NCBI GenBank assembly: GCA_023229665.1
Contig: JALNYW010000002.1
Span: forward strand, 92,988 to 156,987
DNA length: 64,000 nt
From: Patescibacteria group bacterium
GTDB taxonomy: Bacteria > Patescibacteriota > Patescibacteriia > 2-12-FULL-60-25
Direction: 5' to 3'
Shown: in pieces, positions 49,851 to 55,788 of the stretch
Numbering within the stretch: the stretch's first letter is position 1
How the letters are laid out: every line of letters begins with the position of its first letter
Program-made: the position numbers and the translations under genes
Notes under the pieces: model-generated
What the model was told of the DNA's origin: nothing
What the model saw: only the letters and a program-made list of their open reading frames with translations
Database searches by the model: none

Positions 49851-51140
49851 ATGAATCCGGTCCGATCCCGCCGTCCCGGCGCCGTGCATATCAGCGCCCC
49901 CTCGTTCCCCGTCGGCGTACGCCCTTCGGTCTATCGCCGTATCGCCTATACGTTCATCGGCCTCACGGTCATCGTGATTCTGGGTGTGCTTTGGCTGACA
50001 TCGGTCCGCGCGGAAGTCGTGGTCAAGTTGAAGCGTGATGCGGTGCGCCTCGACGGCGTCGTGGAAGTGGCGAAGGAGCCTCGCGACGGCCAGATTCCCG
50101 GCCGCGTCGTCCAGGACGCCTACACCAAGACGCGTGAATTTCAGGTTGCGAAGGATGCTCCCGCGCCCGCTCCGACCCCGACTCCAGCGCCTGCCCCAAC
50201 ATCTGAACCGGAAGAATCCAATGATGTGACGGCGCGCGGCACGGTTAAAATCATCAACAACTACTCCAAGGCGCAGACATTGGTAAAAACCACGCGTTTG
50301 CTCACGCCGGACGGCAAGCTCTATCGCATTGATGCGACGGTGAATGTCCCGGCCAAGAGCGAGCTCACCGTTCCCGCCTATTCGGACAAGCCGGGCCGCG
50401 AATATGTGCTGACCAGTCCGACTAAATTCACGATCCCCGGTCTTTTCGTTGATTTGCAGCAATTTATTTTTGCGGAAACTGTCGGCGCTTTCACGGCCGT
50501 CCCGCGCGGGAGCACGCCTTCCACGGCTCCGGCCGCCAGTACCCCGCGCCCGGTCGCGACCTCACCCAATGCCCGCCCGGTTTCGTATGAAGATTTGGAG
50601 AACGCCAAAAAATCGCTGACGGATGAAATTCTCAATGAGGCGATGAAGGCTTTGGCCGACCAAGTGGAGAATAAAGAGAGTATGGAAGTCGTGTATGTCG
50701 TGAAGGTGGCGGATGAAAGCAAGAATGCGAATGTCGGACAGGTCACGGATTCGTTCTTGTACTCCATCAAATTGGATGTGACGGCCGTGTATTATTCAAA
50801 GGAGGATATGCAGGCTCTGGTGCGCTCACGTTTGCGTGAGCGCGTGCCGGCCGGCCGCGAATTCCTGCCGTTTACCGGCGGCGCCGTGACCTATGCGCTG
50901 GAGTCAGCCAATCCCCAAACCGAAGTCGCGGCCATGCGCGTCACCGCCGACGCCGATTACCGCCTGAGCCCCACGAGCCCGCTCCTCCAGAAGTCCGTGA
51001 TCGCGGGAAAATCCATCGAAGAAGCGAAGGGGTTGCTCATGTCCATCGAAGGCGTGGAAAGCGTGGAAGTCACCGTCCGCCCGTCCTGGCTCGGATCGCT
51101 CCCGGCCCTCAAGGACCGCATCAAGCTGGACATTCAGTAA
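49851..51140 (+). CDS. membrane-anchored hypothetical protein (429 aa)
   Basis: N-terminal anchor IAYTFIGLTVIVILGVLWL, Pro/Ala/Thr linkers, no recognised domain. Confidence 0.68.
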   Translation: MNPVRSRRPGAVHISAPSFPVGVRPSVYRRIAYTFIGLTVIVILGVLWLTSVRAEVVVKLKRDAVRLDGVVEVAKEPRDGQIPGRVVQDAYTKTREFQVAKDAPAPAPTPTPAPAPTSEPEESNDVTARGTVKIINNYSKAQTLVKTTRLLTPDGKLYRIDATVNVPAKSELTVPAYSDKPGREYVLTSPTKFTIPGLFVDLQQFIFAETVGAFTAVPRGSTPSTAPAASTPRPVATSPNARPVSYEDLENAKKSLTDEILNEAMKALADQVENKESMEVVYVVKVADESKNANVGQVTDSFLYSIKLDVTAVYYSKEDMQALVRSRLRERVPAGREFLPFTGGAVTYALESANPQTEVAAMRVTADADYRLSPTSPLLQKSVIAGKSIEEAKGLLMSIEGVESVEVTVRPSWLGSLPALKDRIKLDIQ

Positions 51141-51298
51141 GCGTTTTGTCATCCTAAGCTCATCTCCGGCCTCACCACCCGGCGCCGACAATTGCAGAAA
51201 ATGAGTGTCCCGACCGCGTACGGCGTCGGGGAACTCGGGTGGAACCCTCCGACCGTCGGAGCCCGAGCGAAACACACGTTGTTTCGCTTTTTGTTTAT
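51141..51298 (+). promoter_or_regulatory. T-box-like leader of thrS (antiterminator with UGGAACC bulge plus terminator)
   Basis: GGGTGGAACC at 51237-51246. Helix A1 CTCGGG (51234-39) / CCCGAG (51262-67). 7-nt bulge TGGAACC. Helix A2 CTCCG/CGGAG. Terminator AGCGAAACAcacgtTGTTTCGCT + TTTT (51266-51292). Upstream hairpin loop carries ACC ACC (51174-51179). Confidence 0.45.
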
Positions 51299-53110
51299 AT
51301 GGATAACCCCTTTGCTATGCCCCAACCCATTGAAACCCGCCGCCATAGCGCGGCCCACGTTATGGCCGCCGCCGTAAAGCGCCTTTTTCCCGAGGCGAAG
51401 CTTGGCGTAGGTCCGGTCATTGAAAACGGCTTCTATTACGACATCGATATCAGCCGTCCGGTGACGAACGACGACGTGAAAGCCATCACGAAAGAGATGC
51501 GCAAGATTTTGAAAGAGAATCCGGCCTTTACGCGCATGGATATTTCTTTGGACGAAGCGATCAAGCTGTTCCAGGACCTGGGCCAAACCTACAAAGTCGA
51601 GCTTTTGAACGATCTGAAAACCAAAGGCACGACCAAGGTCAGCGCTGAAGAAGCGCAAGACGTGGACCCGCAAAATGTCGGCATGGTTTCGATCTATCGC
51701 ACCGGCGAATTCACGGATTTGTGCCGCGGCCCGCACGTCACCGAGGCGAAGGAAATTGGCGACGGCTGGAAGCTCACCAAGATCGCCGGCGTCTATTGGC
51801 GCGGCAAAGATACGAACCCGCAAATGCAGCGCATTTATGGTTTGTGCTTTGATACGGCCGCCGAATTGGAAGCGTATGAAGTGATGATGGCCGAGGCCGA
51901 GAAACGCGACCACCGAAAGCTCGGGAAAGAACTCGGTCTCTTCGTTTTTTCGGAGTTGGTCGGTCCCGGCTTGCCGCTGTGGACCCCGCGCGGCACCACG
52001 GTCCGTGAGCTTCTGAACGATTTCGTCTGGCAATTGCGCAAGCCCTATGGCTATGAGCGCGTCACCATCCCGCACATCACGAAAAAGGATTTGTATGAAA
52101 CGTCCGGGCACTGGGCGAAGTATGCCGAGGACTTGTTCAAGATCAAGACGCGCGAAGACCACTTGTACGCGATGAAGCCGATGAACTGCCCGCACCACAC
52201 GCAGATCTACGCGAGCGAGCAGCGTTCCTACCGTCAGCTCCCGATCCGCTACGCGGAAACCACCATGGTGTACCGCGACGAGCAGTCCGGCGAATTGTCC
52301 GGTTTGTCGCGCGTGCTTTCCATCACGCAGGATGATGCCCACGTCTTTTGCCGCGTCTCGCAGGTGCGTGATGAGGCCGAAAAAGTCTGGGACATCATCC
52401 AGCGTTTCTACAATGCGTTCGGGTTTACGCTCACGCCCCGTTTCTCGCGTCGCGACATGGCGAAACCGGAAAAATACCAGGGGAGCGCGGAGGACTGGGA
52501 CAAAGCCGAAGCTTCGTTAAAGGGCATGCTGGAAGAGAAGAAAATCAATTGGGTTGATGGTCCGGGCGAGGCCGCCTTTTACGGCCCGAAGATCGACTTC
52601 ATGGCCAAGGATTCCATCGGGCGCACCTGGCAGGTCGCGACCATTCAGCTCGATTTTACCCAACCGAAGAATCTCGACGTGTTCTGCATCAATGAAGCTG
52701 GGGAGCGTGAGCAGGTCGTGATGATCCACTGCGCCATCATGGGTTCCATCGAGCGCTTCATGAGCGTGCTCATCGAACACTATGCGGGCGCATTCCCACT
52801 GTGGCTGTCTCCCGTCCAGGTCATGATTCTGCCGGTTGCCGATCGCCACAATGACTTCGCCTTCGCTTTGGCAAAAGAGCTGAAAGAGCGCGGCCTGCGC
52901 GTTGAAGTGGACGATTCGACCGAATCCGTCGGTAAGAAAATCCGCAATGCGGAAAAAGGCAAAGCGCCGCGCATGCTCGTCGTCGGCGACAAGGAAATGG
53001 AAGGCGGTCCGCTCACCGTGCGCGTGCGCGGCGAGGCGGATCAAAAGAGCCTCCCGAAGGAGGCCTTCATTGCCGAGTGTTTAAAGATGGTGGAAGAGAA
53101 AGCAACCTAA
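51299..53110 (+). CDS. thrS: threonyl-tRNA synthetase (no N-terminal TGS domain)
   Basis: Begins in the editing domain (HSAAHVMAAAVKRLFPEAKLGVGPVIENGFYYD). Class II motifs (YRDEQSGELSGLSRV) and an anticodon-binding domain. 603 aa from ATG 51299. Confidence 0.92.
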   Translation: MDNPFAMPQPIETRRHSAAHVMAAAVKRLFPEAKLGVGPVIENGFYYDIDISRPVTNDDVKAITKEMRKILKENPAFTRMDISLDEAIKLFQDLGQTYKVELLNDLKTKGTTKVSAEEAQDVDPQNVGMVSIYRTGEFTDLCRGPHVTEAKEIGDGWKLTKIAGVYWRGKDTNPQMQRIYGLCFDTAAELEAYEVMMAEAEKRDHRKLGKELGLFVFSELVGPGLPLWTPRGTTVRELLNDFVWQLRKPYGYERVTIPHITKKDLYETSGHWAKYAEDLFKIKTREDHLYAMKPMNCPHHTQIYASEQRSYRQLPIRYAETTMVYRDEQSGELSGLSRVLSITQDDAHVFCRVSQVRDEAEKVWDIIQRFYNAFGFTLTPRFSRRDMAKPEKYQGSAEDWDKAEASLKGMLEEKKINWVDGPGEAAFYGPKIDFMAKDSIGRTWQVATIQLDFTQPKNLDVFCINEAGEREQVVMIHCAIMGSIERFMSVLIEHYAGAFPLWLSPVQVMILPVADRHNDFAFALAKELKERGLRVEVDDSTESVGKKIRNAEKGKAPRMLVVGDKEMEGGPLTVRVRGEADQKSLPKEAFIAECLKMVEEKAT

Positions 53111-55384: not shown

Positions 55385-55788
55385 GGGGATGAATCAGCAT
55401 CGACGACGGTCGTTCCACAATCTGGCAAGCCGAGCGTGTCGAATCCGCTCGTAAATCATGACCGACGCATGACAACTGCCAATGTCATCTCTAAGGTTCG
55501 CAGCGCGATCGCTTCGGCGTTCAGCGTTCCGACCTTCGCCCCGTCCTTCGCCTAAGGCGAACTGACGAGCCGGTCTGCCACTCCTTGATCCGGGGAATGG
55601 ACAGGCCGTCACTGACGGATCTAGACGATGCATCTGCCTTCGATGCATCGCGACGGCTTGAAGGCGTAGATGACGCGCGCTCGTCCGTTCCCTGACGCGT
55701 CGTCGAACCTCCTGAGCGGACCAAGCTTGTGAATGACGGGTTGCGGACAGCTGTTCGGACGCGGGTGCGATACCCGCCATCTCCACCA
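55385..55788 (+). ncRNA. ssrA: tmRNA (404 nt)
   Basis: 5' GGGGATG pairs with 3' CATCTCC-ACCA, including the G3:U alanine identity pair. T arm GCGGGTGCGATACCCGC. Candidate tag ORF at 55478-55555 encodes ANVISKVRSAIASAFSVPTFAPSFA, then a stop. Confidence 0.9.

Follow-up and report, generated by a model that had tools for sequence, protein, structure and literature searches.

The DNA analysed here is a 64,000-nt stretch (the window) of contig JALNYW010000002.1 from a Patescibacteria group bacterium, and our subject is the short leader in front of its thrS gene, which encodes threonyl-tRNA synthetase (ThrRS). Comparative sequence analysis indicated that this leader is very probably a tRNA-Thr(GGU)-specific T-box riboswitch that works by attenuating transcription. 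Textbooks describe T-boxes as regulators in Gram-positive bacteria, and of their characteristic features we found the bulged antiterminator with helices A1 and A2, the match between the bulge and the discriminator base of the tRNA, a cognate specifier triplet, the order RRRNG-stem III-AA, and a terminator. It is the only T-box that was found in the genome by a scan with our covariance model (R1) and a scan of TGGNACC sites, and it is a particularly reduced form within its lineage, whose closest named relatives are Candidatus Uhrbacteria of the Patescibacteria, or candidate phyla radiation (CPR). The variant is apparently undescribed.

Parts of the thrS leader and the tRNA match

The leader spans from about 51162 to about 51292 (coordinates of the window), the thrS ATG is at 51299-51301, and the parts follow in the order of 4-bp hairpin, A-rich linker, stem III, AA, antiterminator, and terminator with U-run. 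They are given below with the promoter-like site before them and the gene behind them.

51127-51155, plus strand: promoter-like site (-35 box TGGACA at 51127-32, 17-nt spacer, -10 box CATCCT at 51150-55)
51166-51182, plus strand: putative specifier hairpin, an ultrashort stem I (CCGG at 51166-69, 9-nt loop CCUCACCAC at 51170-78, CCGG at 51179-82)
51174-51176, plus strand: putative specifier ACC, directly followed by an A at 51177
51183-51207, plus strand: single-stranded 25-nt A-rich linker, in which an ACAA is conserved; its 3' end is GAGUG at 51203-07, the RRRNG motif 5' of stem III
51208-51231, plus strand: stem III (UCCCGAC at 51208-14, loop, GUCGGGG at 51225-31)
51232-51233, plus strand: AA spacer from stem III to A1, invariant
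51234-51267, plus strand: antiterminator (the T-box proper), made of A1, bulge and A2
51234-51239 and 51262-51267, plus strand: helix A1, CUCGGG paired with CCCGAG
51237-51246, plus strand: T-box 10-mer GGGUGGAACC
51240-51246, plus strand: antiterminator bulge UGGAACC of 7 nt, whose UGGA is complementary to the tRNA 3' end UCCA
51247-51261, plus strand: helix A2 (CUCCG at 51247-51, loop ACCGU, CGGAG at 51257-61)
51265-51296, plus strand: intrinsic terminator (GAGCGAAACA at 51265-74, loop CACGU, UGUUUCGCUU at 51280-89, U-rich tail to 51296)
51299-53110, plus strand: thrS, threonyl-tRNA synthetase of 603 aa (Pfam tRNA-synt_2b, HGTP_anticodon and tRNA_SAD)

An initial annotation of this DNA, made from the letters alone, had proposed A1, the bulge, A2, stem III and the hairpin, and each of these elements is present where it had placed them. 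It had also described a 9-bp terminator and a U-run before the thrS ATG; the hairpin and the U-run stand, but the stem has 10 pairs when its one G.U pair is included. A terminator scan of 50500-51800 gave the hairpin at 51265-89 as the sole terminator-like site. The minimum-free-energy fold of the leader alone was uninformative, since its z was -1.6 and the antiterminator was not in the fold.

The bulge fits the tRNAs of this genome. There are 48 tRNA genes, and the three for tRNA-Thr (GGU, UGU and CGU) all end in ...GGC-U-CCA, which means U73-CCA, the complement of the bulge UGGA; the initial annotation had predicted U73, and 3/3 genes have it. The isoacceptor that reads ACC, tRNA-Thr(GGU), is among them. 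The genome has 485 TGGNACC sites, and 4 of them passed a loose 4+4-bp helix test, but only the thrS site had both GGG before the bulge and the AA spacer.

Conservation, covariation and tracking of the downstream gene

Orthologues of thrS were found in 41 of 41 related genomes, and the leader was present in 15 of 29 thrS upstream regions of close relatives (minus-strand loci were reoriented). Complementarity was parsed by hand on 13 raw leader sequences. In this parse, the outer pairs of stem III were 5/5 in 12 of the 13 leaders and those of A2 were 5/5 in all 13, the strands of A1 gave 4-6 pairs, and the AA spacer and UGGAACC were invariant. The MAFFT alignments numbered A1 and A2 failed to place the variable-length interiors of stem III and helix A2, and a seed alignment (A3) with those interiors trimmed was used only to bootstrap R1. 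Alignment A5 consists of 34 natural sequences realigned to R1.

With R1, the thrS leader scored 78.7 bits in its own genome (E 1e-18), and the next match had 15 bits (E 0.23). The model matched 80 of 127 genomes of the family (22 of 33 genera), always with exactly one copy, and 190 of 401 genomes of the class, which belong to dozens of families and of which a few have 2-3 copies. Under a stricter threshold (E<=1e-4), 45 of 301 genomes in a sample of the phylum were matched, mostly in other classes. The motif is thus conserved 5' of thrS in relatives, as the initial annotation had expected, at 15/29 loci and in 80/127 family genomes. The leader was missing before thrS in genomes of the same genus (G001, G005) and of the same family (L003-L005, L007, L009, L010; our labels), which suggests that it has been lost or replaced repeatedly.

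Pairing in A5 was well above the shuffled level (95.8% of cells were standard pairs, against 75.9%) and both-sided changes occurred in 16 of 20 pairs, although these pair counts lean to the hand-parsed structure because A5 was fitted to a model seeded by that parse. The covariation score was 0.591 against 0.193 for shuffled alignments and was reached by 0 of 500 shuffles, and when the 3' partners were slid by 1-3 columns, the score fell to 0.05-0.135. RNAalifold independently recovered the same four helices. The helix of the specifier hairpin was 100% paired in the 34 sequences, and its second pair was C-G in 17 and U-A in 14. Both-sided changes were seen at all 5 modelled pairs of stem III (99.4% of cells paired) and at all 5 pairs of A2 (99.4% paired), while A1 had 3 invariant and 3 covarying pairs, and the bulge UGGAACC was invariant across the 34 aligned leaders. 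So all four helices covary, which was the outcome of the covariation check on orthologous thrS leaders that the initial annotation had proposed.

The joints between the helices are also kept. Among 32 family leaders, the AA spacer was found in all 32 and RAGNG in 31, and the linker had 23-29 nt (median 25) with 44% A; the variable parts lie elsewhere, in the stem III hairpin (15-43 nt) and the A2 hairpin (13-38 nt). Conservation of the full architecture with covariation in relatives is far beyond chance.

The triplet in the loop and the base in the bulge follow the downstream gene. The loop consensus in family leaders was NNUC-ACC-A-M, and in two family genomes (L013, L015) ACC is replaced by ACG, which is still a Thr codon. 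Of the class-level matches examined, 34 of 43 precede thrS; other neighbours were glyS (L095, L103), valS (L091, L101), trpB (L093, L097) and argG (L081), identities that come from hallmark motifs read in translated open reading frames (ORFs) and not from profile matches. The triplets and bulges were as follows.

thrS leaders of the class: triplet mostly ACC (often in a 7-nt loop CUACCAA), also ACG and ACA; bulge UGGA in all
valS leaders: triplet GUC; bulge UGGU
glyS leaders: triplet GGC in the loop G(U/A)UU-GGC-U; bulge UGGA
trpB leaders: bulge UGGC
argG leader: bulge UGGU

In the valS leader L091 the loop reads AUUU-GUC-AC, so that GUC occupies the position that ACC has in CCUC-ACC-AC here. 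The bulge bases before valS, glyS and trpB fit the usual discriminators of tRNA-Val (A73), tRNA-Gly (U73) and tRNA-Trp (G73), which are general values and not read from the tRNAs of those genomes. A codon and a bulge that track the gene are what the T-box mechanism predicts, which argues against a hairpin unrelated to the anticodon. The ACC-containing specifier hairpin of the initial annotation is therefore well supported, since the triplet before thrS is always a Thr codon and is GUC before valS and GGC before glyS.

Two side observations were made on these leaders. In the glyS leaders, a basal helix and a GA/GA arrangement resembling a K-turn lie below the loop-displayed GGC. In a genome of another family (L030, 836-958), a 162-aa ORF separates a Thr T-box with the loop CUACCAA from the thrS gene behind it.

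Proposed mechanism and alternative explanations

The 5' end of the transcript would be set by the promoter-like site, which overlaps the 3' end of the upstream ORF in such a way that the -35 box covers the last codons of that ORF. A TTGAC[GAC]/TGGACA box, a spacer of 17-18 nt and an nAnnnT box were found in 27 of 31 family leaders, and the gap from the end of the -10 box to the hairpin was 9-11 nt in 23 of 31. A generic promoter scan called no site here, because the match of 8/12 positions is under the scan threshold, and the promoter was recognised only through comparison with relatives. From this conserved site, transcription would begin near 51162, about 4 nt 5' of the hairpin (2-4 nt across the family), and with so little RNA in front of the hairpin, neither a basal helix nor a K-turn could be accommodated.

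In the mechanism that we propose, transcription would begin at this dedicated promoter about 4 nt before the 4-bp hairpin, and the 9-nt loop would offer ACC and the following A to the anticodon loop of tRNA-Thr in a loop-loop contact. Loop-loop complexes between complementary anticodons are stabilised, and a codon displayed in a loop should gain likewise. The 25-nt A-rich strand of near-fixed length would bridge to the discriminator module (GAGUG, stem III, AA and antiterminator), and the linker may thus be a spacer between the anticodon and acceptor ends of the tRNA. The 3' UCCA of an uncharged tRNA, with U73, would pair with UGGA and, together with stem III stacking, would stabilise A1 through its GAG. 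With GAG held in A1, the calculated energy would change from -12.3 kcal/mol for the full terminator to -6.5 kcal/mol for the stem that is left, and RNA polymerase would read through into thrS; with charged tRNA or no tRNA, the full 10-bp terminator would form. Binding of tRNA by the leader is what we infer from these sequence features.

Besides the lean of the pair counts, several findings weigh against this reading. RNAalifold, covariation and promoter position gave no sign of a stem I platform, a K-turn, a stem II S-turn or a IIA/B pseudoknot in the leader, and every part known to confer affinity for the tRNA body is thus missing. In the 5' lead and the linker, we also searched for a closing P1 helix, a junction, a remnant of stem II and a pseudoknot; RNAalifold predicted none of them and none covaried. 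An all-against-all column scan gave no covarying pairs outside the four helices and none that involve the linker, so the family is without a closing helix, junction, stem II or pseudoknot. One candidate pairing, CUCAU/AUGAG, was rejected, since inspection of relatives by eye showed no conservation of it and it would lie upstream of the inferred transcript start. Measured against class I T-boxes, only a 4-bp hairpin represents stem I, with no K-turn, no S-turn specifier loop and no AG bulge/distal-loop platform; measured against class II, there is no stem II and no IIA/B pseudoknot, and there is an intrinsic terminator and no Shine-Dalgarno sequence. The initial annotation had likewise seen no canonical stem I platform, and its idea of a reduced stem I with a displayed codon is borne out by the triplet that tracks the downstream gene.

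The Rfam result is a further point on this side. At its gathering threshold of 93 bits, the Rfam T-box model RF00230 gave no match in the window, and there was none at E<=10 in 51050-51400 and none on the whole 1.34-Mb genome, so the Rfam check that the initial annotation had named formally failed. On orthologous leaders, the same model gave sub-threshold scores of 18-33 bits (E 0.001-7.5) in six relatives, and full alignments (L012, L029) and partial ones (L021, L016; model positions 150-216) span AGNG, stem III, AAAU and GGGUGGNACCGCG. These alignments indicate that the 3' half of the leader is homologous to known T-boxes. In view of these scores, we read the negative result here as a false negative, a failure of sensitivity that arises because a long stem I dominates the model. 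In the literature, the aminoacylation-sensing module is marked by RRRNG-stem III-AA (PMC7778990).

The proposed switch is also small. A hairpin with a U-run 3' of the antiterminator was found in 34/34 leaders, and in 16 of them (subtype 1) 5-10 nt of the A2' and A1' strands are also part of the terminator, as in the canonical arrangement. The other 18, including this leader (subtype 2), have a CGAAAC...GUUUCG stem which overlaps A1' by only 0-3 nt. Here, the first three bases of the terminator, GAG, are the last three bases of the A1 3' strand; the initial annotation was right that the overlap of antiterminator and terminator is tiny, but it is 3 nt and not 2 nt. A1 plus A2 have a calculated energy of -16.0 kcal/mol, and the whole folds are near iso-energetic (-36.3 kcal/mol for the antiterminator with truncated terminator, -35.6 kcal/mol for the full terminator), and the remaining 7-bp hairpin with CUUUUUG might still terminate. 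A 3-bp competition that is tipped by tRNA stacking on A1 is plausible as a workable switch, because the disputed pairs are basal and adjoin the U-run, and it is the least secure step of the model.

The subtype 2 stem, (G/A)CGAAAC...GUUUCG(C/U), is kept in its 18/34 leaders across several genera (window 51265-51289; L036-L058). Terminator stems normally drift freely, so the conserved stem may have a second role or a second partner. No alternative pairing for CGAAAC...GUUUCG was found.

The loss of the known decoding parts fits a degenerate T-box that senses the 3' end alone, in which the 5' hairpin would serve transcript stability or protein binding and specificity would come from UGGA-U73. Its decoding domain is without every known affinity element, and a 4-bp stem seems a weak basis for a loop-loop contact of three bases. 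However, the triplet is always a Thr codon before thrS and in the same register becomes GUC in valS leaders and GGC in glyS leaders, the hairpin covaries, and the linker length is held at 23-29 nt, so we consider this reading improbable. Control at the level of translation, or at both levels, in which the hairpin and U-run would gate ribosome access like the actinobacterial ileS sequestrator, is in our judgement just as improbable. The 6 nt from the U-run to the ATG, the lack of a visible Shine-Dalgarno sequence, the small overlap that makes a pure terminator switch look weak, and the conservation of the CGAAAC...GUUUCG stem across genera, which is unusual for a plain terminator, would all suit it. 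But 34/34 leaders have a GC-containing stem with a U-run directly behind it, the hallmark of an intrinsic terminator, the spacing between U-run and ATG ranges from 6 to >50 nt among relatives, and no anti-Shine-Dalgarno pairing was evident.

Less credible still is a ThrRS autoregulatory operator of the E. coli thrS type, even though the element lies in a thrS leader and has hairpins. In E. coli, the hairpins of the thrS operator mimic the anticodon arm of tRNA-Thr and bind the synthetase, whereas the loop here has the codon ACC and not an anticodon (GGU, CGU or UGU), on which ground we rejected this type of operator; the UGGAACC bulge, RRRNG-stem III-AA and the terminator are T-box features, and the same architecture occurs with other codons before valS and glyS. 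The last alternative, a chance T-box-like motif beside the ordinary terminator of the upstream gene, draws on the fact that the 10-mer GGGUGGAACC by itself is near chance, with 2 copies in the window against 0.31 expected (GGGTGGNACC is expected about 0.3 times per window). The second copy, GGGTGGAACC at 60953-62 on the minus strand, was rejected as a chance match since it lies within a coding region. Against chance, the thrS element is conserved, covarying, found once per genome in the family and linked to thrS over dozens of families, and the hairpin is separated from the upstream stop codon by a conserved promoter, so conservation and covariation refute this least probable of the readings.

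Relation to known T-boxes and neighbouring genes

A T-box with transcription attenuation, which we prefer, can be set beside three known kinds. The glyQS-type class I T-boxes (Bacillus subtilis, Geobacillus kaustophilus) resemble this leader in their order of stem I, linker, stem III, UGGN antiterminator and terminator, and both are without stem II and the IIA/B pseudoknot. Both also have RRRNG-stem III-AA, a bulge N that matches the discriminator, and a specifier that ends in C (the 'C-rule'). In the glyQS T-boxes, however, stem I is long and includes a K-turn, its specifier loop is internal and contains an S-turn, and a platform at its distal end stacks on the elbow of the tRNA, whereas this leader has a 4-bp 5'-terminal hairpin with the codon in the terminal loop, a 3-nt terminator overlap, and no RF00230 match.

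The class II ileS T-boxes (Mycobacterium tuberculosis, Nocardia farcinica) share with this leader a truncated stem I without the elbow platform and the same discriminator domain. In contrast to this leader, they keep the K-turn, the stem II S-turn and the IIA/B pseudoknot, which are required for anticodon binding (PMC10651847; PMC12647780), and they sequester the Shine-Dalgarno sequence where this leader has an intrinsic terminator. Stem I here is shorter even than in this translational ileS class, and the decoding part (51162-51202) has about 41 nt, compared with 87-99 nt in actinobacterial ileS T-boxes (PMC10651847; PMC12647780).

The thrS T-boxes of other Patescibacteria are like this leader in the UGGA bulge, the Thr codon in a terminal loop, the terminator, and the fact that Rfam misses them. 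In most other families, the loop is anticodon-like and has 7 nt (CUACCAA), its stem of 5-10 bp lies 85-148 nt upstream of the T-box, and additional hairpins or a closing helix are present. In the Uhrbacteria-like family, by contrast, a 4-bp stem with a 9-nt loop lies only 71 nt before the bulge, and there are no further parts.

In current models, transcriptional T-boxes need a long stem I platform for fast capture of the tRNA, and where stem I is short, stem II and the IIA/B pseudoknot are required. We give even chances to the further proposal that T-boxes have a third architectural class, represented by the Uhrbacteria-type leader, and that this leader is the smallest tRNA-sensing riboswitch in nature, with a core of about 106 nt and a decoding part of about 41 nt. 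In such a class, base pairing would hold the tRNA in just two places, the loop-loop contact of codon and anticodon on a bare hairpin at the 5' terminus and UGGA-UCCA. These two would be joined by a fixed-length A-rich single-stranded 'ruler' in place of platform, stem II and pseudoknot, and the leader would act in transcription by withholding three basal terminator pairs.

If the assignment is right, the range of T-boxes extends to the ultra-small, host-dependent CPR/Patescibacteria, where thrS would often be the sole T-box-controlled gene. A conserved natural T-box without platform, stem II and pseudoknot would be a minimal system for what tRNA decoding and charge sensing need, and structural work and synthetic biology would gain a compact part that responds to tRNA. 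It would also point to a blind spot of Rfam and TBDB annotation that takes in hundreds of genomes. According to the TBDB paper, its collection was made from RF00230 matches and an actinobacterial class II model, and candidate phyla are unmentioned in the paper. We found no published T-box in CPR, Patescibacteria or Parcubacteria in full-text literature, with most subscription journals outside the scope of the search, which agrees with the statement of the initial annotation that T-box regulation is not described in CPR-like genomes.

The ThrRS encoded behind the leader has a class II core, an anticodon-binding domain and a Thr/Ala editing SAD domain, and is without an N-terminal TGS domain. 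Its ATG comes 6 nt past the terminator U-run, and no Shine-Dalgarno sequence was visible there (window 51290-51301). The upstream ORF (49851-51140, plus strand, 429 aa) has no Pfam match and contains a Pro/Thr/Ala-rich segment, and its C-terminus (SWLGSLPALKDRI...) was found again 5' of thrS in many relatives.

Two other RNA genes were seen nearby. AUA is decoded in most bacteria by a lysidine-modified CAU tRNA, so a tRNA-Ile with the anticodon UAU would be unusual; ARAGORN called one at contig positions 92896-92972, immediately 5' of the window. A tmRNA gene lies at 55385-55788 of the window on the plus strand, with 96 bits against Rfam and a tag peptide predicted by ARAGORN as ANVISKVRSAIASAFSVPTFAPSFA.

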